From positions 96,001 through 160,000 of IMG/VR virus record IMGVR_UViG_3300025121_000014: 64,000 nt of DNA. The stretch is one strand, 5' to 3'. The translations under genes and the position numbers were made by a program. Position 1 is the stretch's first letter, and every line of letters begins with the position of its first letter. Source of the stretch: a virus. Its lineage: Duplodnaviria > Caudoviricetes. Below the pieces are notes generated by a model. That model did no database searches. It worked only from the letters and a program-made list of their open reading frames with translations, and was not told where the DNA came from. This document shows positions 2,816 to 64,000 of this stretch, one piece after another.

Positions 2816-5800
2816 ATGACATATATTAAAGAAACCTATTATAACGTAGAAATTGAAAATTTATTTTATACTGTTAAAACTTTAACACCCGTAGATGATT
2901 CAACATTATCAATAACAAGTAGTTATATGATATTATCAGCAGAAACTGCAATAACATTAAATTCAACTACAAGTATATCTGATGGTTTATTTGAAGGACA
3001 AACAGTTACATTAAGAGGTAATAGTGATACTAATACAATAACAATAAATACTGGATCAAATACAAGATTAAACGGTAATATTACATTAGGAAATAATCAT
3101 ACAATATCATTACTTTATAATGGTATTATATGGGTAGAAACCGCTAGAAATAATTCAACAATCGGAGAATCTGGTAGTTCTGGTCATTTGGTTTTAGATG
3201 GAAGTGCAAATATATATTCAGATGGAACAGGTACAGCATCAAGTTTAAGCGGTGGTGCAAATAATATTTTTTTAGGAAATGATTCAGGTAATGCTGTAAC
3301 TATTGGTAGTAGAAATATATTTTTAGGATATCAATCAGGATATAAAAATACAGATAGTACTGATGATATAGGAATAGGTTATAGATCTGCTGGTTATTAT
3401 GCTACATATTCATCAACTAGTGAAAATGTATCTATTGGTAATTATGCAGGTAGTACATTAGGTGATGGTGTTTCAAATACATTTATAGGTGCTTGGGCAG
3501 GTTTCAATAGAAGTGTAGGTAATTATAATACATTTGTTGGTTATGGTGCGGGTAGTGGTGGTACTAGTGGAGATTATAATGTATTTATAGGATATTTATC
3601 TGGAAATTTAGAAACAATAGGTTCTAATAAACTTTTTATATCTAACTCAGATACATCTACTCCTTTAATTTATGGAGAATTTGATAATTCAATATTACAA
3701 TTTAATGGAACAGTTAAAGCTGAAAATATGGAACCTATTATAGATGATACATATACTCTAAGTACTAGTGTAACTATAACCGGAACAACTAATATAGAAA
3801 CTACTGATATAATAGATTGGGATTTAGATTGTACTGGACAAGGAAATCCAACTATAAGTGCGGGTCAATCATTTTTAACTTCTACTGGATTATCATTATC
3901 AGGTGTAAGTGTATATTTATCAACGGGTATAACTTGGGTAAGTGATGATAATATTCCAATTAGTGCTAAATTATATACTGTAGTAGATGGTGATCCTGTA
4001 ACATTACTTGCAACAAGTACAAATAGTGTGAGTAGTGATGATTTAAATATATCACCAACACAAACTACATTTTACTTTTCATCATATACATTATCAGGTG
4101 CAACTAATTATATTATTGATATTGAAGGTAATTTTACTGCACAATTAGGTGGATTTAAAGTATGGGGTAGTTCTACTAATACTTATGCTAATGGTTATGC
4201 TATTTCAACAGAGGGGGGTGGATATGTTACAAAAAATGATAATGATTTAGCATTTGATATTTTATTTTCAACAATAGAAACAATAGAAACAAGATGGAAA
4301 AGTTTAGAATTATCTAAACATATAAAAATAGGGACATCTGATGGTACTGCTACTGATGGTATGATTCGATATACTGGAACTGATTTTGAAGGATATGATA
4401 GTAGTACTTGGAAAAGTTTAACAGCAGGTATTACAGTTAGTAATCCATCAAATAATAGAATTCTAACATCTGATGGTACTTCTAATGGTATTAATGCAGA
4501 ATCTAATTTAACCTTTAATGGTTCAGTATTAAGTATAACAGGTAATACTATATTTGATGGAACTGTGGATAGATCTATTAAATTAGAAGATATATCAGGA
4601 AGTGCAAATAATTTATACATTTATGGTTCTAGTGGTTCTACTAATGGGGGATCTATTTTTTTAAGAGCTGGTGATGGTGTGTCAAGTTATGGTGGTAGTA
4701 TTTTTATACAAGCTGGTGATACAACTGCAACAACAAGTGGTGGTCACGTTTATATAGATGCTGGTAATACTAATAGTTCTGATTTATTAGGTGGTGTAGT
4801 AATAGGTAATAATAGTTTAGGTGATATAACAATTAAAATTCCATTATATATTCAAAATACTACTTATGCTAGAAATATTAATTCATCTACACATAATTAT
4901 TATGATTTAGGTAGTGGTTCTGGTATTATAACAACAACTTTATCATCTTCTTACGAAACTATGGATGATGGTGGTTGGGCAACATTAGCACAAATTTTTA
5001 CAGTTAAAAAAGCATTCAATTTAACAAGTGCAACTTTATTACTTAATAGAAATGTTGGATTATGGAATGGTGATTTAGTAGCTAAAATATACTCTGTTAC
5101 AGGTGGAACAAATGGAGAACCATTATCATTATTAGCAACAAGTACGAATACTGTTTCTATAGATAGTATAGAGTATGAACCAGATTCTGTAAATTTTACA
5201 TTTGCAAGTTATAATTTAAATAGTAGTACATATTATGCATTAGTATTAGATACACAATCATCTACGGCATTTTCTATAAATTGGTCAGGTGCAATTGGTG
5301 TTTATAATGATGGTATAGGTTTAAAATATGATGGTTCGTGGACTACATCTACAACAGATTTTAGTTTAAAATTAAATGAAACTGATACGTATTATTGGAA
5401 AGATTTATTTGTTCAAGGTGATGTAGATTTTGGAGGAAATGTTATAAGTTCTATAAATATGACAACAACTACTGGTGCATTAAAAGTATCTAATTTAACA
5501 AATACACAAGAAGAAGATTTAAGTGCAGCAAACGGTATGATTATTTATAATACTACAACTAATAAATTTAGAGGTCGTGTAAATGGTGTATGGTCAGATT
5601 TTACAACTTCTGGTGATACAGCACCAATTTCTTCTTCATATTGGGCATATACACCAGATTTATCATCTATTTATTTTTCTAATAATGTGGCTATTGGTAA
5701 AAATACAAACCCTACAACAAAATTAGATATAGTTGGTGATGTTCAATTAGATTATGTATCAGGTGGAGGTAGTCAAAGAACTATATCTATAAGTCAAAAT

Positions 5801-6709
5801 AGTGTAGCTGGTCAAAATGGAACTAATTTAAAATTATTATCTGGTAATGGTGTTGTTAATGGTGGTGCATTGTATATTGGATCAGGTAATTCTATTAGTG
5901 GAATCGGTGGTCATGTTTATATATATGGTGGTAGTACTACATCTGGAACGGAAGGTGATGTATATATAGGATATACTGGTTCAGTAGCAAATGGTAAAAC
6001 TTATGTACAAAATCCAATAATATTTTCATCAACAATTAATAGTGATATAACATTATCTGGTTCAACAAATAGTATTATAAGTGTAGTTACTGCGGGAAGT
6101 GGTGAAAATGGTAATGTTGGTTATAAATTAACTATACGATCAGGTGAAGGTTTTAATGATGGTGCAGATTTAAATTTATATGGTGGTTATGGTTATGCAA
6201 ATGGTGGCGATGTATATATTAGTGGGGGTAAATATAATTCTACAACTACTCTTTATGAAGGTAATGTTATTATAGGACAATACGGTTCTAGTGGTGCAAT
6301 TGTAGGCGAAACTAATATTAAAAATAATTTAATAGTTGATGGTACTTCTCAATTTTATGATGATGTTATTTTTTCTAAAAATGTTAGAGTATATGGTCAA
6401 TCATGGACTGAAATATATACATTAACATCATCAGCAAATATACAAACCGATTGTGATAATAGTAACGTATTTAAATTGAGTTTAGCTCATAACGCAACTT
6501 TAAAAAATCCATTAAATCTTAAAGCAGGTGCAACGTATTTATGGATTATTACTAATACAGGTAATTATGATTTAACTTATGAAGGATATTTTAAATTCCC
6601 AAACGGATATAACACAGATTTAACATTTAATACTGTATGTATATTGACAGGTATATGTGAATCATCAACAGGACCGATATATAGTAATTTAACACAAAAT
6701 TTAATATAA
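2816..6709 (+). CDS. Long tail-fibre-like protein with Gly-rich NxFxGxxAG repeats and modular domains
   Basis: Ser/Thr/Gly-rich; NIFLGYQSG-type repeats; two LLATSTN modules; fibre-type C-terminus. Confidence 0.65.
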   Translation: MTYIKETYYNVEIENLFYTVKTLTPVDDSTLSITSSYMILSAETAITLNSTTSISDGLFEGQTVTLRGNSDTNTITINTGSNTRLNGNITLGNNHTISLLYNGIIWVETARNNSTIGESGSSGHLVLDGSANIYSDGTGTASSLSGGANNIFLGNDSGNAVTIGSRNIFLGYQSGYKNTDSTDDIGIGYRSAGYYATYSSTSENVSIGNYAGSTLGDGVSNTFIGAWAGFNRSVGNYNTFVGYGAGSGGTSGDYNVFIGYLSGNLETIGSNKLFISNSDTSTPLIYGEFDNSILQFNGTVKAENMEPIIDDTYTLSTSVTITGTTNIETTDIIDWDLDCTGQGNPTISAGQSFLTSTGLSLSGVSVYLSTGITWVSDDNIPISAKLYTVVDGDPVTLLATSTNSVSSDDLNISPTQTTFYFSSYTLSGATNYIIDIEGNFTAQLGGFKVWGSSTNTYANGYAISTEGGGYVTKNDNDLAFDILFSTIETIETRWKSLELSKHIKIGTSDGTATDGMIRYTGTDFEGYDSSTWKSLTAGITVSNPSNNRILTSDGTSNGINAESNLTFNGSVLSITGNTIFDGTVDRSIKLEDISGSANNLYIYGSSGSTNGGSIFLRAGDGVSSYGGSIFIQAGDTTATTSGGHVYIDAGNTNSSDLLGGVVIGNNSLGDITIKIPLYIQNTTYARNINSSTHNYYDLGSGSGIITTTLSSSYETMDDGGWATLAQIFTVKKAFNLTSATLLLNRNVGLWNGDLVAKIYSVTGGTNGEPLSLLATSTNTVSIDSIEYEPDSVNFTFASYNLNSSTYYALVLDTQSSTAFSINWSGAIGVYNDGIGLKYDGSWTTSTTDFSLKLNETDTYYWKDLFVQGDVDFGGNVISSINMTTTTGALKVSNLTNTQEEDLSAANGMIIYNTTTNKFRGRVNGVWSDFTTSGDTAPISSSYWAYTPDLSSIYFSNNVAIGKNTNPTTKLDIVGDVQLDYVSGGGSQRTISISQNSVAGQNGTNLKLLSGNGVVNGGALYIGSGNSISGIGGHVYIYGGSTTSGTEGDVYIGYTGSVANGKTYVQNPIIFSSTINSDITLSGSTNSIISVVTAGSGENGNVGYKLTIRSGEGFNDGADLNLYGGYGYANGGDVYISGGKYNSTTTLYEGNVIIGQYGSSGAIVGETNIKNNLIVDGTSQFYDDVIFSKNVRVYGQSWTEIYTLTSSANIQTDCDNSNVFKLSLAHNATLKNPLNLKAGATYLWIITNTGNYDLTYEGYFKFPNGYNTDLTFNTVCILTGICESSTGPIYSNLTQNLI

Positions 6710-6712
6710 AAA

Positions 6713-8050
6713 ATGATAAGTATACCAACAACACTTTTTATAGGTAATAATAAAGAATTAACAACTTCTTTTAGTTTTTATACATCATCTAAATCTATAA
6801 TTTATCCTACAATAACGACTAGTGATAATAGTGCTGATTATGCTTCTTGGGAAGTAGGTAATTATGATTATTATACTGGTAGTAGTCCATCTATTGATTT
6901 ATCATCATTTACTGATAGTTGGGTTTATATAAAAGTTTATACATACGATCCAACAAAAATTACTCACTTATACATAAGTAGTTGTAAATTAATACATACT
7001 TTATACATAAATTATTTGAATGGTTTATTATATTTAAATGCATCATCAAATCCAACATTATATAGTATAACTATGCCTACTAATAATTTAGAAATAACAA
7101 CTGGTATGTATATTTCTGATTGTACAACATTACAAACGTTAGATTTTACTGGATTTTCAAATTTAGCTGGTATAATATTTATACGTGGTTGTTCTTCATT
7201 AACAACTGTAAAATTAACAACATCTAATCAACTTATAACATCGTTTAATGCCGAAAATTGTAATTTAACAGATACATTATATTTATCATTTCTTACAGGT
7301 CTATCTGGTGATATAATATTAGATTTTAATTATAATTTAGATTTTTTAATATTACCTGCTAGTTCACAAGAAGTAACTTATTTTAGTGCTGATAATTGTT
7401 ATAATTTAAAACTGCTTAGTGCTGGTTCAATGACTAATATGAAAACATATTTTTCTGTAAACAATGCTAATTCTTTATATTATTTTTCTCCGCCAGTTAC
7501 AAGTAATAGATTTAGTACTTTTAGACTTAGTGGTACAGTTTTATCTGGAATAATAGATTTAAGTAATATGGGTACTTTCGAAGGTGATATTATTATGAAT
7601 AGTAATATTAATGTTACTAATGTTACATTTCCAACAATTTCAAATAACGGAACATTAGGTAAATTTTATTTACATTATTGTAATTTAGGTTCTACATTTG
7701 AAATACCTTTTGAGTGTGGTTATAATACTGATATTAAATTAGATGATAATTCAAATTTACAACATGTAGATTTACCAGTAACATCAGAATTTTGGAAATT
7801 TAGTATAAGTAATTGTGATTTAGAATTAATAGAATGGAATGTTAAATTTACATCTACTGATAATAATTATTGTAAAGTAGTAATTCAAGGAAATGGTATG
7901 GACGGTGCTTTAATTGGATTAAATTATAAATATTTATATGATACTGGTTGGTGGTATGGTGAATTATGGGTTGATTCTACTTTAAATTCAGATGCAATAT
8001 ATTATAAAGGAAAGTTAAAATATAGAGGTTGGACTATATACACTATTTAG
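6713..8050 (+). CDS. LRR-like virion/receptor-binding protein
   Basis: Degenerate LxxLxxxxCxxL repeats; directly follows the fibre gene. Confidence 0.5.
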   Translation: MISIPTTLFIGNNKELTTSFSFYTSSKSIIYPTITTSDNSADYASWEVGNYDYYTGSSPSIDLSSFTDSWVYIKVYTYDPTKITHLYISSCKLIHTLYINYLNGLLYLNASSNPTLYSITMPTNNLEITTGMYISDCTTLQTLDFTGFSNLAGIIFIRGCSSLTTVKLTTSNQLITSFNAENCNLTDTLYLSFLTGLSGDIILDFNYNLDFLILPASSQEVTYFSADNCYNLKLLSAGSMTNMKTYFSVNNANSLYYFSPPVTSNRFSTFRLSGTVLSGIIDLSNMGTFEGDIIMNSNINVTNVTFPTISNNGTLGKFYLHYCNLGSTFEIPFECGYNTDIKLDDNSNLQHVDLPVTSEFWKFSISNCDLELIEWNVKFTSTDNNYCKVVIQGNGMDGALIGLNYKYLYDTGWWYGELWVDSTLNSDAIYYKGKLKYRGWTIYTI

Positions 8051-8394
8051 TAGAAAGACATATCACCACTCCAAGAACTTTGAGTTGGTATTGAATCCCC
8101 AACATATGGTCTAATTGTCGGATTTACTGTCGGATCTAATCCTGTATCATCACTAACACCCGTATAACCACCTACTATATCTTGTAAAGTTATTGCATGA
8201 TTAGGCGCATTAAATAAATGAGAACCTTCAATATTATGTGAAACTATAAAATTATTTATAGATAATTTCTTAACTATTTTTACAGGTACTATATCACCTG
8301 TTATATCATATCTTATAAATACTTTATCTCCAACTGAATAACTTTTTGTATTTTGATATTTTTCTGTTATATATTCTATAAATTTTGTTATCAT
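8047..8394 (-). CDS. Hypothetical protein
   Basis: 115-aa ORF, co-oriented with 8398-8712. Confidence 0.6.
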   Translation of the reverse strand: MITKFIEYITEKYQNTKSYSVGDKVFIRYDITGDIVPVKIVKKLSINNFIVSHNIEGSHLFNAPNHAITLQDIVGGYTGVSDDTGLDPTVNPTIRPYVGDSIPTQSSWSGDMSFY

Positions 8395-8397
8395 AAT

Positions 8398-8712
8398 TTA
8401 TTTTGTTTTTATTAATATGTCTGATTTATCTGCAATATCATATATCGATTCATAAACTGGTAATAATTCTTTCTGTTCTTTTTTTTCTTTCATTTTATTT
8501 AATAATGGAATTAAATCATTTAAAATATTATTACCTAATTTAGCAATATTATTTTTATTTTGTACTAACCGATTATAATATTCAATATTAAATTGTTCTA
8601 AGGTTGTTTCCTTATTAACATATTTATTCCAAATATCTGATACATTAATAGTTAATTTCCAATCATCAGAACCGTAAAAGTCTTCCATTTCATTAAAATG
8701 ATAAATTTTCAT
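8398..8712 (-). CDS. Hypothetical protein (MKIYHFNE leader)
   Basis: ORF preceded by a minus-strand TTAATATATA at 8771-8780. Confidence 0.6.
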   Translation of the reverse strand: MKIYHFNEMEDFYGSDDWKLTINVSDIWNKYVNKETTLEQFNIEYYNRLVQNKNNIAKLGNNILNDLIPLLNKMKEKKEQKELLPVYESIYDIADKSDILIKTK

Positions 8713-8834
8713 TTATTTATTTTTTATTTTTTTGTATTTATTATAAATTATTATGTTGTTTGTCATACTCTATATATTAAATCTTAATTATTAAAATTAT
8801 AATTTAATATATAATAAAAAGTAAATTAAATTAT

Positions 8835-10670
8835 ATGGCAATTGGAACTAAATTATATCCCGTAATCGTTTTAAAAGAATTAGAAAATGATTCAAGTATT
8901 TCTGTAATTAGTGGATTTACCTATATTTATACTAAAACCAATAATAATTTATATTTTAAAAATACTGGTATTACAGAAGCTAGATTCTATACAAGTAATG
9001 AATCTATTATACCAAATATAAATAGTACAAATGATATAGGTACAACTAATTATTCATTTCGAGATTTATATTTAAACGGCAGTATCAAAATACCTAACGG
9101 TCAAACTATATTCAATGTTAATACAACTTATAATAATACATCCGTAGGTCATCTTGCTGGTGGTACAAATACAGGCACTAATAATGTAACTGTTGGTTAT
9201 TCATCTGGTTATAATTTATTAAATAGCGCTAATAATACTTTAATTGGTACTGATGCAGGATATAATCTTACTACTGGTGATGGTAATATATTTTTAGGTT
9301 ATCAAGCTGGTTATCAAGAAACAGGAAATGATAAATTATACATATCTAATTGGAGTGGAAACACAGGACAAACTTTAATTTATGGTGATTTTAGTACTAA
9401 TGAATTAACTATAAATGCAGATGTTGAAATTAGTAACACTATTGATATTGGTGGTGATTTAATAAAGTTTAGTGGATTTGATTTTATAAGATCTGCTAAT
9501 ATATCTACTACAGTTATAGGTATTGAAGCTGCAACTGGATTAACAAGTAGTGGATATAATAATGTAATTATAGGTTATCGTGCAATGCAATCAATAGAAA
9601 GTTGGGATAATTGTACAGCAATAGGTGTTGAGGCAGGAAGATATCAGAGATATCATCATCAAATATTTATTGGTTATCAAGCAGGGTTAGGTGTAGAAGG
9701 AGTTACAACTGCTGATGGTAGTATGGCAATAGGAAATTATGCACTTAAAGTAATAGAAACAGGTTCGAATAATTTAGCCATAGGTCACAGTACTATGTTT
9801 AAATTTACAGACGGGTCTAGTAATACAGCAGTAGGATACAATGCGATATTTAATAATTTAACTGGAAGTTATAATACAGGTTTAGGCCAAGGTGCATTAT
9901 ATCAAAGTTTAGGTAGTAGTAATGTGGCTATTGGTTATTATGCTGGTCAAAATGCACAAAGCGGTGGTGTTTATATAGGTCATAAAGCAGGATTTTATGA
10001 AACAGGATCAAATAAATTATTTATTGCAAATGATAATCATACAAGTGAAGCTATTAGTAGAATAACATCATTAGTTTATGGTGAATTTGATACACCTTTA
10101 TTAAGATTTAATTCAACTGTTGAAATTAGCGGAAATACAATACCTATTTATAACAATTCAACTGATTTAGGTTCTTCGTCATACGGTTGGAGAAATTTAT
10201 ATTTATCTAATGATAGTGGAATATATGTTGGTAGTATTGAAGGAATACGAGTAGGAAGTGGTGAAACCTGGTTAAATCATGAAATTCATATAGAAAACGA
10301 TACTTGGATAACTGGAAGAAATAATTCAGGAACAACAGAAGTAAATATAATAAAAATAAATACAAATGATGAAATAGAATTAGGTGCTACATTTAATGTA
10401 GGAAGTTTAGAAGCAGCCGAAGATAGTGGTGCAGTAACTTTATTTGATATGCCTGTTTCAAGCACACCAACATTAGGTGATGAAATGTCTGCTACTATAA
10501 AAATTGATGGAAATAATATTTTAAAAATTTATGCTGAAGCAGATGGTACTGGTGGTGTTGATACTTATAGAGTAAAATTATTAAATAAAGCAAAATTAGT
10601 TTTACAAGATAGTACAGGAATTGAACACACTTATGAAGCTGATTCTGATGGATCGTTAATAATAAGTTAA
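8835..10670 (+). CDS. Tail-fibre-like protein with Gly-rich beta-roll repeats
   Basis: Many NxAIGxxA / NIFLGYQAG repeats; YDLGSSSYxWRNLY-type module. Confidence 0.65.
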   Translation: MAIGTKLYPVIVLKELENDSSISVISGFTYIYTKTNNNLYFKNTGITEARFYTSNESIIPNINSTNDIGTTNYSFRDLYLNGSIKIPNGQTIFNVNTTYNNTSVGHLAGGTNTGTNNVTVGYSSGYNLLNSANNTLIGTDAGYNLTTGDGNIFLGYQAGYQETGNDKLYISNWSGNTGQTLIYGDFSTNELTINADVEISNTIDIGGDLIKFSGFDFIRSANISTTVIGIEAATGLTSSGYNNVIIGYRAMQSIESWDNCTAIGVEAGRYQRYHHQIFIGYQAGLGVEGVTTADGSMAIGNYALKVIETGSNNLAIGHSTMFKFTDGSSNTAVGYNAIFNNLTGSYNTGLGQGALYQSLGSSNVAIGYYAGQNAQSGGVYIGHKAGFYETGSNKLFIANDNHTSEAISRITSLVYGEFDTPLLRFNSTVEISGNTIPIYNNSTDLGSSSYGWRNLYLSNDSGIYVGSIEGIRVGSGETWLNHEIHIENDTWITGRNNSGTTEVNIIKINTNDEIELGATFNVGSLEAAEDSGAVTLFDMPVSSTPTLGDEMSATIKIDGNNILKIYAEADGTGGVDTYRVKLLNKAKLVLQDSTGIEHTYEADSDGSLIIS

Positions 10671-50682: not shown

Positions 50683-51207
50683 ATGAAGTTAACAGATAAG
50701 CAAATAAAGGAAACATATATAAATGTATTAACTAGTACAAAAGTTAATGATATAATTAAGAAAAATAGCCAGGGACTTAAACTTGCGCTAAATGAACATA
50801 TATGGTTTGAAAAACAATTTGGTGTGAGAAAAGCAAATCTTAATTTTGCTATGACAACAGGTGAAATAGATGAATATGCCAAATGTAAAATGGATGTTCA
50901 TTACTTTGCAAATAAATATTGCCACATTAAAAGAGAAGACGGTACAATTGGACCAATGCAACTAAGAGATTACCAGAGAGATATTATAGATTTATATGTT
51001 AATAATAGATATTCTATATTAATGACTAGTAGACAATTAGGTAAGTGCAACTCCTTGGTAACCAGATTGTTAGTAAAATTTGACAATGGTGATGAATATG
51101 AAATTACTATGGGAGAATTATATTATACTTACATTCAACAAGAAAGAAAACTAACAATCATAGAAAAAATTAAACTTTTTCTATATAAAGCACTATCTAA
51201 ACTATAA
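50683..51207 (+). CDS. terL: Terminase large subunit N-fragment plus 53-aa N-intein (Cys1 at 51046)
   Basis: LRDYQ adenine motif, SRQLGK then CNSLVTRLLVKFDNG..ITMGELY. Confidence 0.85.
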   Translation: MKLTDKQIKETYINVLTSTKVNDIIKKNSQGLKLALNEHIWFEKQFGVRKANLNFAMTTGEIDEYAKCKMDVHYFANKYCHIKREDGTIGPMQLRDYQRDIIDLYVNNRYSILMTSRQLGKCNSLVTRLLVKFDNGDEYEITMGELYYTYIQQERKLTIIEKIKLFLYKALSKL

Positions 51208-52827
51208 TATTTGATTATAAATATATTTTAAATTACCAGAATTATATATTCTATAAATTTTTCTTTCTAACATAATTTGATGTTCAGTTTTGTTAACATC
51301 ATAACCTTCTTTAATTAATTTATCTTTTCTGAAATTAAATCTATGGTGTCTAATTTGGTCAATAATATAATAATAATTAGGTGATGTTTTATGTATAAAA
51401 TCAAATCCTAAAACTTCATATAATTTTCCATTAGAATGACTTCTATCTGCATATGTAGTTATATTATCAAATTTATAATTTCTAATAAAATACTTAAATA
51501 ATTTACTAGCACATCCTATTACATTTGTATTAAGTTTATTACAAAACCTTAACATTTCATATTGTCCTTCGGTTTTTGAAGATGAATTCATAGATTTTCT
51601 TAATTTTCCAAAAGTCATTAATGAAATTAATTCATTTTCATAAAATAAACCTAATTTAATTTTACTTCCTACAAAACCTTGAATATGATTTTCATCTAGA
51701 AATTTTCTAACTAATTTATTATCAATTATTTCTTTAACTTCTGTTTTTCTAGCGTATATTTTGTTTGGTGTTCTACCTAACTTATTCAATATCATTGATT
51801 TAACTATATCTTGTTTATATACCCAATCATCTTCATATATATGAATTAATTGAATATTTTTTTTATCACATAATTCAGTTTTATCTAAATGATAATTATT
51901 CGGTCTATATAATTCATTATGCCAATAAACACCATTAAATTCAAATGCTAATTTTAAATCAGGGATATAAATATCTAATTCTTTTCCATCTAATATTTTT
52001 CTATCATTTGTTATTATTAAATTATTATAATTTTCTTTTATAAAATCTAATAATTTATTTTCTTTGTCAGAACCAGGATCATTAATAGGATTACATATTG
52101 TACATAATGTAGTATTAGTTTCTAATCTATTATAAAAAATTGTTTTAGGTATTTTACTTATATGATTATTACATTGATATATATAAGTATAATCTTCATA
52201 ATCAATATCAATAATATTGTTATTTTTATATTTTTGGATTAATTTATTTTTTTTATTAATTGTTTTTTTTTCTTGGGTAGATTTTAATTTTGATATATTA
52301 TCAACACCATATAATTTTAAATTAGTTTCTCTATATTTTTCTAAATTATTATAATTTTCATCACCATATTTTTCTTTTTTAGTAACTAACGATTGTTTAT
52401 GATTATTATAATTTTCATCACCATGTTTTTCTTTTTTAGTTTTTTTAATTTTTTCAATATGTTTTGTTGTTTTTGATGGGTGAGTCGTACCATATTTATC
52501 TAAACATGTTTTTATATATTTTTTACTATTTGTATAATTTTCATCACCATATCGTTCTTTTTTAGTTTTTTTCATTTTAATATATTTACATTTATTACAA
52601 TAATATAAGCCATCATCATATGTATTATTAATATATGTTCTATACTCCATATTTTTAATATCTCCACATATATCACATTTAACATCAATTTTAATTGGAC
52701 TGCCTTTAATTAAATCTTTTATATTTATATTTATAGTATCTCCTTTTTTGGCATCATAATTTTTATTTTTATAAAATGTAATATTTCTAGTACTTATATT
52801 CATTTTTACTTGTTCAGTTATAATCAT
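51202..52827 (-). CDS. Hef/Vsr-like free-standing homing endonuclease with KYG repeats and a GNAT-like C-domain
   Basis: ELDIYIPDLKLAFEFNGVYWH, IHIYEDDW, YADRSHSNG; start moved from 52896 (inside the IS end) to MIITEQ. Confidence 0.75.
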   Translation of the reverse strand: MIITEQVKMNISTRNITFYKNKNYDAKKGDTININIKDLIKGSPIKIDVKCDICGDIKNMEYRTYINNTYDDGLYYCNKCKYIKMKKTKKERYGDENYTNSKKYIKTCLDKYGTTHPSKTTKHIEKIKKTKKEKHGDENYNNHKQSLVTKKEKYGDENYNNLEKYRETNLKLYGVDNISKLKSTQEKKTINKKNKLIQKYKNNNIIDIDYEDYTYIYQCNNHISKIPKTIFYNRLETNTTLCTICNPINDPGSDKENKLLDFIKENYNNLIITNDRKILDGKELDIYIPDLKLAFEFNGVYWHNELYRPNNYHLDKTELCDKKNIQLIHIYEDDWVYKQDIVKSMILNKLGRTPNKIYARKTEVKEIIDNKLVRKFLDENHIQGFVGSKIKLGLFYENELISLMTFGKLRKSMNSSSKTEGQYEMLRFCNKLNTNVIGCASKLFKYFIRNYKFDNITTYADRSHSNGKLYEVLGFDFIHKTSPNYYYIIDQIRHHRFNFRKDKLIKEGYDVNKTEHQIMLERKIYRIYNSGNLKYIYNQIL

Positions 52828-52884
52828 ATTATTAGTTTTTATTTTATATATAAAAAGGTCAAAGTGTAAAATATCATTATTTAT

Positions 52885-53736
52885 ATGACCCGTCAAAGAA
52901 AATCGTTAAATCTTTAGTTTAAAGGATGAATTTGACATACCAAAATTAAAATTTACTGATATAGATTTACACAGAGAATTTAAAGGTGATATAAAAACTA
53001 TAACTATTTCAAAAACAACAACAAATAAATATTATATAAGTATTTTAGTCGATAACAAAAAAGAATTGCCTGAAAAACAACCAATTAAATTAGAAACAAC
53101 CGTTGGTGTCGATTTGGGAATTAAAGATTTTGTTATCACTTCAGATGGAAAGAAATTCAAGAACCAAGATTTCTTTAAATCTGCTTTAAAGAAACTAAGA
53201 GTTGAACAGCGTTCCCTTAGTAGAAAACAAAAAGGATCAAACCATTATTTAAATCAAAAATTAAAGGTTTCATTATTTCACGAACACATTAAAAACCAAA
53301 GAGAAGATTACTTACATAAAATAACTAAATACCTTGTAGATAATTATGATACAATTTGTATAGAAAATCTTGGTGTTTCTAATATGATGAAAAACAATAA
53401 GTTAAGTCGTGCTATAAGTGATATGGGTTGGTTTAAATTTAAATCATTTCTTGAATATAAATGTGAATGGTATGGAAAGAATTTAAGTGTGATTGGTAGA
53501 TTTGATCCTTCATCAAAAACATGTTCTGTTTGTGGAAAAATAAATAAAGAATTAACATTAAAAGACAGAAACTGGAAATGTAATTACTGTGGAACAGAAC
53601 ATGATAGAGATATAAATGCTGCAATTAATATAAGAAATTTTGGGTTGAGGAACCAACCTAGCGTTACACAAAGTGAATGGTTGCATTGTGCTTGTAGCGT
53701 AGAAACACACAAATCTTCAGTTTGTGCGTAGTTCAT
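52885..53736 (+). mobile_element. IS200/IS605-type element T2 with 5'-deleted tnpB (852 bp)
   Basis: TTTAT 52880-84, left-end hairpin, right end GAAACACACAAATCTTCAGTTTGTGCGTAGTTCAT. Confidence 0.88.
52937..53731 (+). pseudogene. tnpB: N-terminally truncated TnpB
   Basis: Frame IPKLKF..KYYISILV..GVDLG..IENL..CSVC..CNYC..DRDINAAINI begins right after the left end, with no HTH. Confidence 0.85.
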
Positions 53737-53776: not shown

Positions 53777-56026
53777 ATGATTAAATTATTTATAAAACAG
53801 ATAATATATTTAATAATAGAATTATTAGAAAAAATGGAATATAAAAATAATTCATTTGATGAAAATAATCCATTAAAAAAAATTATTAATACTATTCCTA
53901 TTGATAATGTTTCTATTGAAACCGATTATGGGTTTGTTCCTATAACTGAAATGAATTTAACTGCGCCATTATCATTATATAGATTAGAATTAGATAATGG
54001 AGATTGGTTAGAATGTGCAGATGATCATATAGTATTCACAGAAGGACATCAACAAAAATTTGTTAAAAATTTAACAACAGATGATAAAGTATTATGTAGA
54101 GAAAATTATATTGAAGGTATAAAAGTTAAATCAGTTAAAAATCTTAAAAGAAAAGTTAGTTTAATGGATATTACAGTAGATACTAATGAAAAAAGTTATT
54201 TTGCTAATAATATCTTAAATCATAATACAGTTTCAGCCGCAATTGTAATATTGCATTTTTGTTTATTTAAAGAAAATAAAGGTGTTATGGTTGTAGCAAA
54301 TAAAGGAAAAACAACAATAGAAATTATAGAAAAAATAAAAAGTATTTATAAATTATTACCATTCTTTTTAAAAGCGGGTATTATTAATTGGAATCAATCA
54401 AGTATTACTTTTGACAATGGTTGCCAAATTAAAACGGAAAAAAGAACTAAGGAACCTGCAATCGGTTTTACAATAGATCTCCTTTATCTTGATGAATTTG
54501 CTCATATACCTGAGAATTATATTGTACCGTATTATACTGCGGTTGTACCAGTTGTATCTAGTATTGAAAATTCAAAAATTATTATCACATCTACGCCAAA
54601 AGGATTAAACTTATTTCATAAATTATTAATAGAATCTGAATTACCAGAAGATGATCCTAATTGGAATGGTTATCGTTCTTTAAGAGTATACTGGTGGCAG
54701 GTAAAACATAGTAGAGATACAAAAATATTCTTTAACGAAAAGAAATTAAGAAAATATAAATTAAATAAAACTGAATTAAAACAATTCTTAATTGAAAATA
54801 AATATAACATTTATGAAAAAAACGAAAATAATTTAAATGGTATATTTATAAATTATGAACCAAATGAAGAAAGTACTCAGATTGATTATATAAGAAACTT
54901 AAGATATAACGAATTACCTTTATCTGAATTAGGTATGATTACTAATTGGGAGGAACAACAAACTAAATTGATTGGCGGAGAAGATGGTTTTAAACAAGAA
55001 TATGATCTTCATTTCTTAACAGGTAATAAAATGTTATTTGATAGTGTTCTTCTAGAAAAAATGATGGAAGACAAATTACCATTTGAATATTATAGTATTC
55101 CTATATTTAATGAAAAATTAAAAATACCTTATAATAATTTAACATTTGTTAAAGGACAACCAGAATTATTTGATATGAAAAAAGTAAAAGATTATCATAT
55201 TTTTATATCAATTGATTTAGGTGAAGGATTAGGTCAAGATTATAGTGTTATTAATATATTTAGAGTAATGCCAAAAACATCAGAAGAATTAAATTATTTT
55301 AAAAAACGAATTGATGGATTGTATGATTATTTTAAACTTGAGCAAATCGGTATGTTTAAATCAAATATTTATTCAGTTAAAGAAGTATCATTAATATTAT
55401 ATATGATTACTTTCGAATTATTTAATGATAATAAAGTAAGAATAGCACTTGAAAGAAATGTATATGGTGATGAACTTATTGCTCATATGCCACATGTTTT
55501 TGACGATAACAATAATTATTCTAGTCACGTATTTTTAAGATATAAACATAATTTAGAACAAAAAACATCTAGAATGGGAATAAAAGTTAATAGGAATAAA
55601 TTATCATTAATAAAAGATTATCAAATACAAACGAAAAAGGGAAATATTGTTATTCGTCATTTAAATACTATTACCGAATTAAGTACATTTACTAAAAAAG
55701 AAACTCCTAGTGGTGGAATTACATATCAAGGAGAAAGTGGTCACGATGACCAGGCAATGACGGTTATTGTTTTAGCAACAATATTTAATCATGTAGGATG
55801 GAAAAATTGTATTGAAGAATTTATGAAAGAAAATAAAGATAATAGAAATCTAATACATAATGATTTTAACAAAATTGTTGATGAATATCAAGCAGATATT
55901 GGTGATATTAAAACGTTTCAAATTTCATATAAAAAGATTTATAATAAAAATTACAATCCTAAAAATCAAAAACAAGTTGGATATGGTGGTAAAATAGCAC
56001 CTCCCATTTTTCCAACAAGAAGATAA
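53777..56026 (+). CDS. terL: 150-aa C-intein plus terminase large subunit C-fragment (Thr+1 at 54227)
   Basis: ECADDH block B, YFANNILNHN|TVSAA; LYLDEFAHI, ITSTPKG, SIDLGEG, GHDD. Confidence 0.88.
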   Translation: MIKLFIKQIIYLIIELLEKMEYKNNSFDENNPLKKIINTIPIDNVSIETDYGFVPITEMNLTAPLSLYRLELDNGDWLECADDHIVFTEGHQQKFVKNLTTDDKVLCRENYIEGIKVKSVKNLKRKVSLMDITVDTNEKSYFANNILNHNTVSAAIVILHFCLFKENKGVMVVANKGKTTIEIIEKIKSIYKLLPFFLKAGIINWNQSSITFDNGCQIKTEKRTKEPAIGFTIDLLYLDEFAHIPENYIVPYYTAVVPVVSSIENSKIIITSTPKGLNLFHKLLIESELPEDDPNWNGYRSLRVYWWQVKHSRDTKIFFNEKKLRKYKLNKTELKQFLIENKYNIYEKNENNLNGIFINYEPNEESTQIDYIRNLRYNELPLSELGMITNWEEQQTKLIGGEDGFKQEYDLHFLTGNKMLFDSVLLEKMMEDKLPFEYYSIPIFNEKLKIPYNNLTFVKGQPELFDMKKVKDYHIFISIDLGEGLGQDYSVINIFRVMPKTSEELNYFKKRIDGLYDYFKLEQIGMFKSNIYSVKEVSLILYMITFELFNDNKVRIALERNVYGDELIAHMPHVFDDNNNYSSHVFLRYKHNLEQKTSRMGIKVNRNKLSLIKDYQIQTKKGNIVIRHLNTITELSTFTKKETPSGGITYQGESGHDDQAMTVIVLATIFNHVGWKNCIEEFMKENKDNRNLIHNDFNKIVDEYQADIGDIKTFQISYKKIYNKNYNPKNQKQVGYGGKIAPPIFPTRR

Positions 56027-59238: not shown

Positions 59239-59652
59239 TTATACTTTATTTCCTAAAAGTTTAATATTTTTTTGAATATTATTTATTTTTTTTATTCTTT
59301 TTATATTTAATGGAGTTAACGATTCAACTAACCATAGATAAAATTTAACAAAATCGTTATTTTTAATAGTTAATTGAATTTCAGGTGAATTATGTTTAAT
59401 ATTCATATATCTTTTATTAGCATCAATATAAACACTATCTACATCAATAAATTCATCGCTTATTGAGTATATACTATTTGTTAATAATTTTAACATATGT
59501 AATCTTCCAAAACTACTATTAGCAATTATTTTATTATTTAAAAATAATATAACTTGTTGGAATATACCCTCGTCATCAAATCTACTACTTTCAAAACCGA
59601 TTACTAATTCGAATTTATATTCATCATAAATCCAATAATATTTTTCTACCAT
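59239..59652 (-). CDS. Hypothetical protein
   Basis: 137-aa ORF. Confidence 0.5.
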   Translation of the reverse strand: MVEKYYWIYDEYKFELVIGFESSRFDDEGIFQQVILFLNNKIIANSSFGRLHMLKLLTNSIYSISDEFIDVDSVYIDANKRYMNIKHNSPEIQLTIKNNDFVKFYLWLVESLTPLNIKRIKKINNIQKNIKLLGNKV

Positions 59653-59659
59653 TATATTT

Positions 59660-61276
59660 TTATTTTAAATTCTTTAAATATTTAAATTTTAAATTACCAG
59701 AATTATAAATTCTATAAATTTTTCTTTCTAACATAATTTGATGTTCTGATTTATTAGCATCATAACCTTCTTTAATTAAAACATCTTTTCTAAATCCAAA
59801 CCTGTGATATCTAATACCATCAACGACATAATAATAATTTGGTTTAGATGTATGTGAATATATGAATCCTAAATATTCATATAATTTTCCAGTTGAATGG
59901 CTTCTATCTGCATACGTAGTTATTTCTTTAAATTCATAATTTCTTATAAAATATTTAAATAATTTTGAAGCACCACCTATTACATTAGTATTTAATTTAT
60001 TACAAAATCTTAACATTTCGAACTGCTTTTCTTTTGAAACTGAATTCATCATTTTTCTTAATCCACCAAAAGTCATTAAACTAACTAATTCATCTTTATA
60101 AAATAATCCTATTTTAATAGATGATCCCATAAATCCTTGAATATGATTTTCAGCCAAAAAGTTTCTGACTAATTTATTATCTGTTATTTCTTTTACTTCT
60201 GTTTTTCTTGCATATATTTTATTTGATGTTTTACCTAACTTATTTAAAATCATTGATTTAACTATATCTTGTTTATAAATCCAATCATCTTCATAAATGT
60301 GTATTAATTGAATTTTTTTTTCATCACATAAATCAGATTTTATTTTATGATAATCGTTTGATTTATATAATTCATTATGCCAATAAACTCCATTAAATTC
60401 AAATGCTAATTTTAAATCAGGTAAATAAATATCTAATTCATAAGGATTTATTATATTCCTATCATTTGTAATAATTTCTTCTTTATAGTTTTCTTTTATA
60501 AAATCTGATATTTTTATTTCAGAATCAGATTTAAAATTGAAACCTATTGAATTACACTTAGTACATAACGTAGAATTTAAAATTAATCGATTTTTTAATA
60601 ATCCTTTATTTATTTTAAAAATTTGGTTACAATTATTACATTTAATAAAATAATCCGGATTATTATAATTTATAACTATAATATTATATTTATCTTTATA
60701 GTATTTGATGGAATTTTTATTTTTAATATTTTGTATTTTTTTATATAATTCTTGTTGTATTTCTTTAGATTTTAATCTATATTCAACTCCATATTTTTCT
60801 AAATTTGTTATTTTAATTTTATCCCATACTTCTTCTGTTTCTAAACCATATTTCTTTCCGTATTTACTTAAATTAGTATTTTGAAGTTTTTTAATTATTG
60901 TATTTGAATGCATAGGGTGATCAACACCATATTTTTTTAATAATGTATTTTTAGATTTTTCTTTTATTTTATCTAATTGAAAAATATTTTCAACATTATA
61001 TTTATCATTTAATCTTCTAATACATTTATCATTAGAACATTTTTTAGAGCAACAATATTCTTCTGTTAAATTATTAGTATTTTTGATATATTGGAAATAT
61101 TTTAATTTTTTTTCTAATCCACATATATCACATTTTACTTTAATTTCAACATGACTATTTTTTGATAAATCTGTTGGTTTTACCAATGAATATTTTAATA
61201 AAACATCATACCCTAATTGTTCATAATGTTTTTTTAATTTTCTATTATTAATTTTTACTTCTTTTGTAATAATCAT
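59660..61276 (-). CDS. Second Hef/Vsr-like homing endonuclease
   Basis: ELDIYLPDLKLAFEFNGVYWH; C-terminal half highly similar to 51202-52827. Confidence 0.75.
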   Translation of the reverse strand: MIITKEVKINNRKLKKHYEQLGYDVLLKYSLVKPTDLSKNSHVEIKVKCDICGLEKKLKYFQYIKNTNNLTEEYCCSKKCSNDKCIRRLNDKYNVENIFQLDKIKEKSKNTLLKKYGVDHPMHSNTIIKKLQNTNLSKYGKKYGLETEEVWDKIKITNLEKYGVEYRLKSKEIQQELYKKIQNIKNKNSIKYYKDKYNIIVINYNNPDYFIKCNNCNQIFKINKGLLKNRLILNSTLCTKCNSIGFNFKSDSEIKISDFIKENYKEEIITNDRNIINPYELDIYLPDLKLAFEFNGVYWHNELYKSNDYHKIKSDLCDEKKIQLIHIYEDDWIYKQDIVKSMILNKLGKTSNKIYARKTEVKEITDNKLVRNFLAENHIQGFMGSSIKIGLFYKDELVSLMTFGGLRKMMNSVSKEKQFEMLRFCNKLNTNVIGGASKLFKYFIRNYEFKEITTYADRSHSTGKLYEYLGFIYSHTSKPNYYYVVDGIRYHRFGFRKDVLIKEGYDANKSEHQIMLERKIYRIYNSGNLKFKYLKNLK

Positions 61277-61280
61277 AATA

Positions 61281-62213
61281 TTATATTTTTATTTTAAATT
61301 CTGTTAATGGAAATTCTTGTGGTTTATAAATTTTTTCTCTTCTTGATATATATTGATTATATATAATATTTTTATAAGATGGATGATATTGATCAACTAT
61401 ATCAAACACAACTAACTTTTCTTTATCTGCATGTAATCTTAATCCACGACCAATTGATTGTCTAATTATTTGATCTGATTTAAAACTGTCAGCAAAAACA
61501 ACATTCATTAAATTTTTAACATTTATACCTGTTGAAAATGTTCCAAATGACGCAATTAATATTTTTGGTTTATTATCCGATATCTCCATTATTTTTTTAA
61601 TTTTTTCTCTTTTATCTTTATTAGTACCACCGTCAATATAATAAAAGAATTTATCTGTAATATTATCTCTAAGATATTCATATAATTCTGTACCATATAT
61701 TATATTATGAAATAATATTAATGAATTGCTTGTAAACTTATCTACTAATTTTTTGAAGAACATTTTCCTTCTTAATGATTTTTGAGCAAATTCTTTTTCT
61801 AATAAATATGCTTCTTTTCCTTGACCTCTTTTTTTAATAGCATACATTTTTTGTGAGAAATCTTCTTCATCATGATTTAATATCATAGCATTAATTTTTA
61901 CCTTAGATACTAGACCTTTATCCATTAATTCTTTAGCTTTAACAGTCATTAATTTAGGTCCCATTAAAGATTGAATAGTAAGAATTTCGGCTGAACTATT
62001 CGGTGGATATGTTCCAGATAACCCCAATCTATAAATAGCATTACCAAATGTTTTAGATAGTATTGTATCTAAACTTTTTGCTTTTGCTACGTGGCAATTA
62101 CTAACACATATTCCATTAGCAAAATAATTATTATTTATATCATTTCCTTCTTTTATTCTTATATTATAAACGTCACCAGTATAATCTATTTTTTTAATTG
62201 ATTTAATTTTCAT
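61281..62213 (-). CDS. uvsW: 39-aa C-intein plus UvsW-like SF2 helicase C-fragment
   Basis: MKIKSIKKI..VYNI..NYFANGICVSN|CH; LGLSGT, QSIGRGLR. Confidence 0.85.
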   Translation of the reverse strand: MKIKSIKKIDYTGDVYNIRIKEGNDINNNYFANGICVSNCHVAKAKSLDTILSKTFGNAIYRLGLSGTYPPNSSAEILTIQSLMGPKLMTVKAKELMDKGLVSKVKINAMILNHDEEDFSQKMYAIKKRGQGKEAYLLEKEFAQKSLRRKMFFKKLVDKFTSNSLILFHNIIYGTELYEYLRDNITDKFFYYIDGGTNKDKREKIKKIMEISDNKPKILIASFGTFSTGINVKNLMNVVFADSFKSDQIIRQSIGRGLRLHADKEKLVVFDIVDQYHPSYKNIIYNQYISRREKIYKPQEFPLTEFKIKI

Positions 62214-62237
62214 TATAATTTTTTATCATTTTTATTT

Positions 62238-63293
62238 TTACATATTAAAATCTATAATATCATCATTTTCTAATAAATTGTCTACTCTTTTCCATATACC
62301 ATTTTTTAATAAAACTTTATGATTTCCTGTAATATAGATAAATTCACCATTTTCTAATTCTAATTCATACATATTTTCAAATTTAGATAAGTTTTTGTAA
62401 ACATAATCAACCTGTTTTATTTCTTTTTCTTTTGTTAATTCATTAAATGTCCATACTTCATCTCCTATATTAATATTTTTTATCATTTCTTTATTACCAG
62501 ATCCCATTTCTATTAAAGTATTAGGGTGTAAACATTCATCTGTGACAACAATATCAAATTTTTTGAAATAATTGATATCATATTTATCCGATGATAAACT
62601 TTGATAAGTTCCAATATAAATATTAGGTTCTTCACCATCTCTTACTTTTCTTGGCTTATCAGAAAATACTTCTTCTATTTTCAAATTAAATGGATTTGTT
62701 TGTTCTTTATTAAATCCTAAATTATAATCTAATATTTCATCGTAAAATTGAGTTACTAAACTCATTCTAGGTACAATTAATAGAACTTTAATATCAGGAT
62801 TGATAAACTTCATTATGTAAAATATAAACGTTGAAAATATAAGAGATTTTCCACCAGCAGTTGCTACTTCAATTAAACCAAATTTATATTTCAACATTTG
62901 AAATACAGCATCTATTTGATGTTCATAAGGCATAAATAATCCTAATGGATTATCTTTAGTTGGAGGAACTCTATAATTTTTAAAAAATTCTTCAACAAAT
63001 TCTTTAACATCTTCTAATTTGATATTTAAATCAAATGGAAATGATGTCTTATCGACATCAAATTTATAATCATGATTCCGACAACATTTATATACTTCTT
63101 TCCAAAGACCGTATCTTATAATACCATTATGAAAATGATCAATAGAACCATCCCAAACTCCTAATTTATGTCGTTTTTTAAAATGATATCCTTCTACTTT
63201 TCTAGTAAGATGTAATTTTAATTGATGATATTCTTCATGAGTAGATTCTTTAATTATTATCTTATTTTTGTCGTCTGTTATTACTAATTTCAT
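62238..63293 (-). CDS. uvsW: UvsW-like SF2 helicase N-fragment plus 98-aa N-intein (Cys1 at 62534)
   Basis: YEHQ, ATAGGKS Walker A, VVTDE|CLHPNT..ITGNHKV. Confidence 0.85.
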   Translation of the reverse strand: MKLVITDDKNKIIIKESTHEEYHQLKLHLTRKVEGYHFKKRHKLGVWDGSIDHFHNGIIRYGLWKEVYKCCRNHDYKFDVDKTSFPFDLNIKLEDVKEFVEEFFKNYRVPPTKDNPLGLFMPYEHQIDAVFQMLKYKFGLIEVATAGGKSLIFSTFIFYIMKFINPDIKVLLIVPRMSLVTQFYDEILDYNLGFNKEQTNPFNLKIEEVFSDKPRKVRDGEEPNIYIGTYQSLSSDKYDINYFKKFDIVVTDECLHPNTLIEMGSGNKEMIKNINIGDEVWTFNELTKEKEIKQVDYVYKNLSKFENMYELELENGEFIYITGNHKVLLKNGIWKRVDNLLENDDIIDFNM

Positions 63294-63294
63294 A

Positions 63295-63771
63295 TTAATT
63301 CGTTCCTAAAATATCCATTAATTGAATTCTGTTTTTAACAGCATAATTCATTGTAATAAAATTACTTGATGTATCTCTTAAAAATTTTATATGATTATCT
63401 AATAAATCTATTCTATATTGAAATTTTGCTATATCTGCTTCAATTAATCCGTTTTTATCTGATCCACTAGTTACCTTTATCTGGTATTTTGTTGAGTAGA
63501 ATTCAAATCTTTTCTTTTTTGCTTGTTTAATAGATGGCATATTTTTATACAAAATCAAAGAATATTTTCTAACCTGTTCAAGAACAATCTGTTGATAACT
63601 AATTATATCGGCTTGTACTTCTACAAGTTTTTTTACATCACCTTTAAGTGTAAATGAAATAGTTTTAACTAAATTATTCCAATAATTAACTTCCTTTTCT
63701 AAATCTATTTCAATTTTTTGAGTTTCGTTATCATATAATTTTGCTTTATCTAGTTCTTGTTCATCTGCCAT
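63295..63771 (-). CDS. UvsY-like recombination mediator
   Basis: Helical ~160-aa protein directly upstream of the UvsW-like gene, as in T4-like synteny. Confidence 0.45.
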   Translation of the reverse strand: MADEQELDKAKLYDNETQKIEIDLEKEVNYWNNLVKTISFTLKGDVKKLVEVQADIISYQQIVLEQVRKYSLILYKNMPSIKQAKKKRFEFYSTKYQIKVTSGSDKNGLIEADIAKFQYRIDLLDNHIKFLRDTSSNFITMNYAVKNRIQLMDILGTN

Positions 63772-64000
63772 ATTATTAAATCTTTTTTCTTTATATATTA
63801 ATAAGATATATTTGTTTATCTAAAAATAATTTTTAATATATTTTTACAAGTTTCATATGAATATTCAAAAAAAACATTGAAAGCTTTAGGTTTAAATTAT
63901 TGAGTTATCTTTCCAAAAATTATATATTTCAAATATTTATATATAATATAAAAATAAAGAATTGTTAAAATGGTACAAAAATTTTCTAATATTCAAAAAA

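Follow-up and report, generated by a model that had tools for sequence, protein, structure and literature searches.

The locus treated here raises the question of why a phage would encode a repair helicase of the T4 UvsW type in two neighbouring open reading frames (ORFs), with the break in the middle of its Walker B motif. It lies on the minus strand of a 64,000-nt stretch of DNA (positions 96,001 to 160,000 of IMG/VR record IMGVR_UViG_3300025121_000014; hereafter the window), which derives from an AT-rich huge phage of a groundwater metagenome with a genomic G+C content of ~22%. Our answer, to which we assign a probability of roughly 0.85, is that uvsW carries a naturally split intein of the class 1 type between the residues DE and CH of motif II (Walker B) of this superfamily 2 (SF2) helicase, that the two products would be joined by trans-splicing to a protein of 524 amino acids (aa), and that the intein belongs to a mobile family whose intervening endonuclease gene was probably lost in this phage, leaving just 24 nt behind.

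The first ORF (ORF-N) codes for the N-terminal helicase part (N-extein) followed by the N-terminal intein half (IntN), and the second (ORF-C) codes for the C-terminal intein half (IntC) followed by the remaining helicase (C-extein; Table 1). A preliminary description of the locus, made from the sequence alone, had given coordinates and lengths for the ORFs, the intein halves and the gap, all of which proved correct on re-checking the sequence. The start and length of IntN were likewise given correctly, but the TGNH named along with the start represents block B of the intein (ORF-N residues 322–325), not its end, and is followed by another 26 aa ending with ...DFNM. Both ORFs share the same frame, and the ORF-N stop and the spacer read stop-K-stop-K-stop-stop-K-I-I. 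Because this amounts to four in-frame stops (three TAA and one TGA), the ORFs cannot be joined by reassigning any single stop codon. Splicing would combine 253 and 271 extein residues and restore the motif DECH, in agreement with the ~524-aa helicase proposed earlier.

Table 1. Features of the split uvsW locus and of related loci in the window (window coordinates).
Feature	Position	Strand	Description or basis
ORF-N	63293..62238	(-)	351 aa: 253 helicase residues ending with VVTDE, then the 98-aa IntN
N-extein, UvsW-like helicase residues 1–253	62535..63293	(-)	UvsW_N, motif I GGKS, terminal DE of motif II
IntN, 98 aa, ORF-N residues 254–351	62241..62534	(-)	Starts with CLHPNT; Cys1; block B TGNH
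TAA stop of ORF-N	62238..62240	(-)	Sequence; bridged by other contigs without difference
Spacer, 24 nt	62214..62237	(-)	A/T-rich, in frame with both ORFs; three further stops
ORF-C	62213..61281	(-)	310 aa: 39-aa IntC, then CH and the rest of the helicase
IntC, 39 aa	62097..62213	(-)	MKIK...YFANGICVSN, terminal Asn39; sequence and alignments
C-extein, 271 aa and stop codon	61281..62096	(-)	From Cys+1 (CH of motif II) to the end; includes Helicase_C
Homing-endonuclease-like gene, free-standing, 538 aa	59660..61276	(-)	DUF7487 (E 4e-13); phrog_3339 'homing endonuclease' (E 8e-121)
Upstream gene, probably UvsY-like recombination mediator, 158 aa	63295..63771	(-)	Homology and synteny
TerL split intein, short IntN and long IntC	50683-51207 and 53777-56026		Same window; halves 2.6 kb apart

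The host protein had been described as UvsW-like, which is borne out by profile and structure matches. In Pfam, the N-extein matched UvsW_N (E 5e-10; 40 bits vs. a cut-off of 25.3), ResIII (E 1e-11) and DEAD (E 4e-10), and the C-extein matched Helicase_C (E 1e-7). An intein-less allele of 524 aa (P0018) found its best match among solved structures in T4 UvsW (2OCA), with an E value of 5e-42 over residues 16–489. Because T4 UvsW reads NDECH at the column of the insertion in this alignment, the intein is inserted between the E and the C of motif II. Judged by its domains and full-length similarity, the host is a T4 UvsW-type SF2 helicase with a predicted activity in branch migration and R-loop unwinding.

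The residues between the helicase parts were recognised as an intein by the same means. The tail of ORF-N matched the Pfam models Intein_splicing (E 2.7e-8) and Hint (E 1.4e-5), and the head of ORF-C matched the last 34 positions of Intein_splicing. Among solved structures in the PDB, IntN matched the DnaB mini-inteins of Ssp and Npu (E 2e-4), its TGNH being aligned to their TxNH, and the intein of a contiguous relative also matched the Pho RadA mini-intein across block F, while a search with IntC by itself found nothing significant among these structures. The two fragments, together with their intein halves, fall within the PHROG families 16259 and 9690, with phrog_9690 extending over ORF-C residues 2–308. 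These Pfam and PDB matches and the recurrence of the feature in dozens of independent contigs put the intein far beyond chance.

This recurrence was evident from a protein search, which returned about 80 N-fragments of 344–387 aa with the same helicase and IntN build (46–93% identity, on contigs of up to 614 kb) and 38 C-fragments of 306–313 aa, which start with MKIK... and contain an IntC ending with ...SN/CH or ...AN/CH. The split intein allele of uvsW is common in related huge phages, and the same split at NDE/CH is present in the cultured Salmonella phages S16, STP4-a and SEA1 and in Proteus phage PM2. The junction of the window copy was also recovered in other data: Logan contigs of three further sequencing runs (X4 record 5, X5 record 13 and X7 record 18), of which two came from other samples, span the junction from the stop across the spacer to the start with 0 differences, and the separately assembled contig L007 (ENA ANAN16 scaffold_26166), which represents the same phage, is identical at the junction. 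The check for an artefactual stop and gap named in the preliminary description thus turned out negative. Over positions 845–1825, L007 shows just two differences from the window, a single substitution and a 75-nt deletion. The deletion keeps the frame, removes 25 N-extein residues (ORF-N ~90–114) between UvsW_N and motif I, and reflects either variation in the population or the assembly.

The residues needed for splicing are strongly conserved. In an alignment of 52 N-fragments, D252, E253, C254, H256 and T322-G323-N324-H325 are invariant, and the same holds for N17, N39, C40 (Cys+1) and H41 in 36 aligned C-fragments. The features of a class 1 intein are present, namely a Cys1 right after DE, a block B of the T-x-x-H type and a terminal Asn followed by Cys+1. 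The position after DE is occupied by Ala in 47 and by Ser in 29 intein-less alleles and by Cys in only one, while every intein-bearing allele contains Cys. Because Cys+1 is the nucleophile and is nearly absent from intein-less alleles, the Cys after DE tracks the intein.

To follow selection, we took L008, a likewise split relative with 75% identity, as the reference for the ratios of nonsynonymous to synonymous substitution rates (dN/dS) and for dS, leaving out L007 as the same phage. The dN/dS values were 0.17 for the N-extein, 0.23 for IntN, 0.14 for IntC and 0.19 for the C-extein, which indicates purifying selection on the helicase and on both intein halves in the split lineages. A helicase under such selection in two split lineages would have to be reassembled. 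When IntN (ORF-N residues 246–351) and IntC (ORF-C residues 1–50) were modelled as a complex, the pair reached a score of 0.84, compared to 0.01 for the best of three controls, with at least 95% of the contacts agreeing between runs and a predicted local distance difference test value (pLDDT) of at least 77 for the partner. Of 80 solved complexes, 58 attain the mark applied to these models, as do 2 of 110 mismatched pairs; these counts are rough because our own alignments were used, and the pass of the uvsW pair may have its source in a likeness to solved split-intein complexes. The model supports a docking of IntN with IntC but does not establish it, and it does not extend to the chemistry.

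In the mechanism we propose, ORF-N and ORF-C would be co-transcribed and translated separately, and the 98-aa IntN and 39-aa IntC would associate into one HINT domain, as modelled. Cys254 would then undergo an N-S acyl shift, the N-extein would be passed to Cys+1 (residue 40 of ORF-C), and Asn39 would cyclise; this step is deduced from the invariant residues and established intein chemistry. As an outcome, the intein would be released and the helicase parts would be connected by a peptide bond through an intact DECH motif. The family appears to invade uvsW of huge and T4-like phages, where its halves normally flank a free-standing gene for a TnsA-like/NUMOD3 endonuclease. A promoter scan of positions 59500–64000 was uninformative (44 promoter-like sites vs. 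47 expected), and the sole terminator-like hairpin found in the same region falls inside ORF-N. No Shine-Dalgarno (SD) motif precedes ORF-C, as is the case for 34 of the 40 larger ORFs of the window. Because most genes are without an SD motif (a weak or better one was present in just 6 of the 40), its absence before ORF-C is normal for the window; the scarcity of SD motifs and the position of the start codons throughout in A/T-rich leaders suggest an SD-independent initiation in the host of the phage.

Several observations weigh against trans-splicing. Position 4 of block F is Asn (N17) instead of Asp throughout the family, the block F His is replaced by Asn in the window copy (NNNYF vs. NHNYF in many relatives), and the penultimate residue of IntC is Ser instead of His (Ala in some relatives, His in S16). 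In Pfam, neither intein half reaches the curated cut-off for the full domain (34.2 vs. 35.8 and 18.7 vs. 35.8), dS values near 1 are close to saturation at ~22% G+C, and selection for splicing could be weaker than in a replication gene, since uvsW is non-essential in T4. The low Pfam scores are to be expected because each query represents only half a domain. As assisting residues, the block F Asp, the block F His and the penultimate His occur in many inteins but not in all, and they are not strictly defining. The DnaE split inteins of Npu and Ssp likewise have no penultimate His, and its absence is therefore not disqualifying. Regarding the unusual residues in block F and at the penultimate position, the speed of splicing should not be assumed.

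These same three replacements form the basis of the alternative which survives best, although we regard it as unlikely, namely that the intein is dead, its halves dock without splicing, and the helicase works or fails as a non-covalent complex of two chains. The complex model would fit this alternative as well, since it does not extend to the chemistry. However, Cys1, TGNH, the terminal Asn and Cys+1 are all invariant across the family, and Cys+1, which would not be required of a pure docking module, is nearly confined to intein-bearing alleles. Moreover, a domain of 137 residues left in the Walker B motif would probably block ATP hydrolysis, and relatives with NHNYF and NNNYF are interleaved, with intact ORFs in both.

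It is considerably less probable that uvsW was simply broken by a selfish element and that both pieces are drifting. The dispensability of UvsW in T4 and the loss of the endonuclease gene from between the halves in the window phage would be compatible with such a decay, but the dN/dS values of 0.14–0.23 in all four segments between two split lineages argue against it. In addition, both ORFs are of full length with invariant catalytic and helicase motifs, and the same split is kept in phages more than 50% different in sequence as well as in cultured lytic phages.

Even less credit is due to synthesis of a single precursor, either by read-through or by a ribosomal hop over the 27 nt in frame from the ATG before the stop to the start ATG, followed by splicing in cis. 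ORF-N indeed has ATG as its final sense codon and ORF-C starts with ATG, the ORFs share their frame, and the contiguous allele P0207 reads ...EN-MKIKSIK... at the corresponding position. However, the shared frame has a 1-in-3 chance of occurring anyway, and four stops of two kinds separate the ORFs. Folding of the junction RNA revealed no structure (z 0.78), which leaves a bypass element without support. Relatives vary at the C-terminal residue of IntN (I, F or M), and most of them contain 0.8–1.7 kb between the halves. Finally, an assembly or sequencing artefact in a contiguous intein, for which we found no positive support beyond the A/T-rich, low-complexity nature of the region, is practically excluded by the contigs and the L007 assembly bridging the junction without differences and by the conservation of the split in dozens of contigs.

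The compact layout of the window copy was compared with a survey of 33 split loci. Their usual state is an N-fragment, a gene of ~276 aa and a C-fragment, with a gap of 0.8–1.05 kb, and an endonuclease gene is located exactly at the split site in about 24 of the 33. Because the halves are separated by kilobase distances in most relatives, trans-splicing appears as the normal mode of the family. The intervening gene of the relatives matches phrog_15427 'endonuclease' and shows sub-threshold matches to TnsA-like restriction-endonuclease folds, and gp114.1, the intervening gene of S16, contains a NUMOD3 motif. Overall, the relatives form a series of states: no intein, a contiguous intein, an endonuclease fused to it, a free-standing endonuclease, a remnant of it, and an empty spacer.

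The contiguous state is represented by mini-intein alleles of 639–660 aa (P0206, P0207, P0209 and P0210). P0206 and P0207 align straight through the break, which places the split between blocks B and F, in the loop used for endonuclease insertion. In P0208, IntN is fused in frame to an endonuclease, and in L001 a 77-aa remnant of the intervening endonuclease gene is left. L004 has no gap between the halves and carries an IntN with a leftover Zn-ribbon tail (positions 5040–5164), a stretch of 42 aa with a CxxC...CxxC pattern resembling the Zn-ribbon linker between IntN and the TnsA-like endonuclease of P0208; this tail is likely a remnant of a fused endonuclease. A different endonuclease lies between the halves of L011 (IMGVR_UViG_3300028603_000074, positions 5754–10423), the closest relative in IMG/VR with 73%. 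It is of the DUF7487 type, and a second copy follows directly downstream of the C-fragment; the two copies at this locus indicate that the same endonuclease family occupies both positions. The empty state with a 24-nt spacer, as found in the window, is rare. No endonuclease gene is present between the halves in the window, where an endonuclease-like gene is located downstream instead, and the intervening gene was probably lost, as included in our preferred reading. Comparisons with L011, L008, L001 and L004 did not reveal where the spacer came from.

Three lines of evidence indicate that the element is still mobile, either by homing or by precise loss. In a tree of 161 N-extein sequences, split and intein-less alleles are interleaved, and the starred branches force at least 18–21 changes. 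The N-exteins of P0006 (split) and P0038 (intein-less) are 96% identical and differ right at the junction. In nearly all pairs, the exteins have a higher dS than the intein, most clearly between the window and L008 with ~1.05 vs. ~0.5.

More tentatively, traffic between contiguous and split inteins may run in both directions, and the window copy may represent an intermediate of re-fusion from split to cis rather than only an end point of the accepted development from cis to split; we consider this possible but doubtful. The idea is based on contiguous alleles nesting within split-intein clades, where starred branches force at least 3 changes, on P0207, in which the initiator Met of IntC is fused directly to the end of IntN, and on the window copy itself, which contains no endonuclease and has adjacent in-frame halves only one 27–30-nt deletion short of a contiguous intein.

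A second interruption of uvsW was observed in the C-terminal part of L003 (ENA KRAE22 scaffold_1297, positions 5936–8061) and also of P0209, just before motif V. The ORF of the L003 clade leaves the helicase after ...EETTEK and continues with a conserved tail of ~50 aa (VEYTIL..LLSDG..DITQEDDIDD). In L003, this tail is followed by an ORF for an HNH endonuclease (6767–7726) and then by the remainder of the helicase (..GTLSTGVSINAIF..), which shows neither a start codon nor a recognisable IntC. A group I intron could account for this break, as could a split intein of an atypical kind with a short IntN.

Regarding known systems, the layout at uvsW is that of a fractured gene as described by Dassa et al. 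2009 (PMC2677866), who reported genes with split inteins for eight host enzymes, including gp41, IMPDH, DnaE, NrdA, NrdJ, ligase and terminase. As in those systems (gp41-1 to -8, NrdJ-1, IMPDH-1 and NrdA-2), a phage gene of DNA metabolism is cut into two ORFs with a real stop and start between them, the intein is split at the endonuclease-insertion loop into a long IntN and a short IntC, and a free-standing endonuclease gene is located between the halves in most of the uvsW relatives. Intein-less alleles exist as well, and the distribution is patchy and mobile-looking. In contrast, UvsW is not among the host enzymes of that paper, the endonuclease of the uvsW family is TnsA-like/NUMOD3 instead of GIY-YIG, and only 24 nt separate the halves in the window. 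The loss of the intervening endonuclease gene is the point specific to this copy. A literature search and the papers examined that mention both intein and UvsW gave no report of UvsW as a split-intein host, and a search of the literature on split inteins of huge phages yielded nothing relevant.

While the long-N/short-C architecture was described correctly in the preliminary description, the assignment to the gp41-1 class only applies to this architecture and not to the sequence. The nearest solved inteins by sequence are the DnaB and RadA mini-inteins, and gp41-1 was not among the matches. The Ssp and Npu DnaB and Pho RadA mini-inteins (1MI8, 4O1R, 4E2U) are the best solved matches of the HINT core and have blocks A and B in common with the uvsW intein, but they are contiguous and reside in other hosts. 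According to the alignment, the Pho RadA intein contains Asp at position 4 of block F and His at the block F His position, compared to Asn at both in the window copy. The two DnaB mini-inteins have the same Asp and His at these positions.

The closest counterparts in cultured phages are those of the S16/PM2 group, comprising the gp114/gp114.1/gp115 locus of Salmonella phage S16 and the loci of STP4-a, SEA1 and Proteus phage PM2 (NC_020416, NC_055727), which share the insertion point at NDE/CH. Their IntN of ~98 aa is 45% identical to that of the window, and their IntC comprises 35 aa. They differ from the window copy by a 291-aa endonuclease-like ORF between the halves and by an IntC ending with the canonical HN. 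The same allele has been present in GenBank phage genomes for years without being labelled. The fragments are annotated just as 'DNA helicase' and 'hypothetical protein', and our literature search found no text describing the uvsW fragments of S16, STP4-a or PM2 as split inteins.

The genes around the split uvsW were also analysed. The homing-endonuclease-like gene begins 4 nt after ORF-C and is paralogous to an ORF inside the TerL break (51202-52896, minus strand), with 58% identity overall; the C-terminal halves of the two proteins are near-identical, while the N-terminal Zn-ribbon/KYG-repeat regions are divergent. Members of this DUF7487 family are also located directly downstream of the split uvsW in L004 and L011. 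The last 168 aa of the paralogues show a weak match to the Mom family (E 1e-5, below the cut-off), and the 538-aa protein had no match in the PDB. Its EFNGxYWH core has what we take, from reading the motif alone, to be a Vsr-like look, which was not confirmed by computation. On the upstream side, the 158-aa protein is 39% identical (E 3e-42) to an L009 ORF with a weak PF11056 UvsY match, but did not itself match any Pfam model. It probably represents a diverged UvsY mediator, and its position next to uvsW is reminiscent of T4-like phages, where uvsW and uvsY share a neighbourhood.

As noted in the preliminary description, the window contains a second split intein of different architecture in TerL. 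This AceL-TerL-like intein follows the same fractured-gene logic and is associated with a paralogous DUF7487 gene, but it is split near its N-terminus instead of at the endonuclease loop, and its halves lie much farther apart. Judged on this architecture, a cross-reaction of the TerL halves with the UvsW halves seems unlikely, and the orthogonality of the two inteins and its use in protein engineering, both raised in the preliminary description, are predictions.

With this locus, UvsW, interrupted at the DE/CH of Walker B, joins the short list of hosts of naturally split inteins. For annotation, gp114 and gp115 of S16 and similar fragments should be labelled as one uvsW predicted to be trans-spliced, and for protein engineering the locus offers one more candidate split intein of the Cys1/Cys+1 type with 98 and 39 aa and unusual residues in blocks F and G. 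The family is large and active, reaching from huge phages of groundwater to cultured phages of Salmonella and Proteus, and it provides a complete natural series of states, which is useful for understanding how inteins become split, shed their endonuclease and, perhaps, fuse again.

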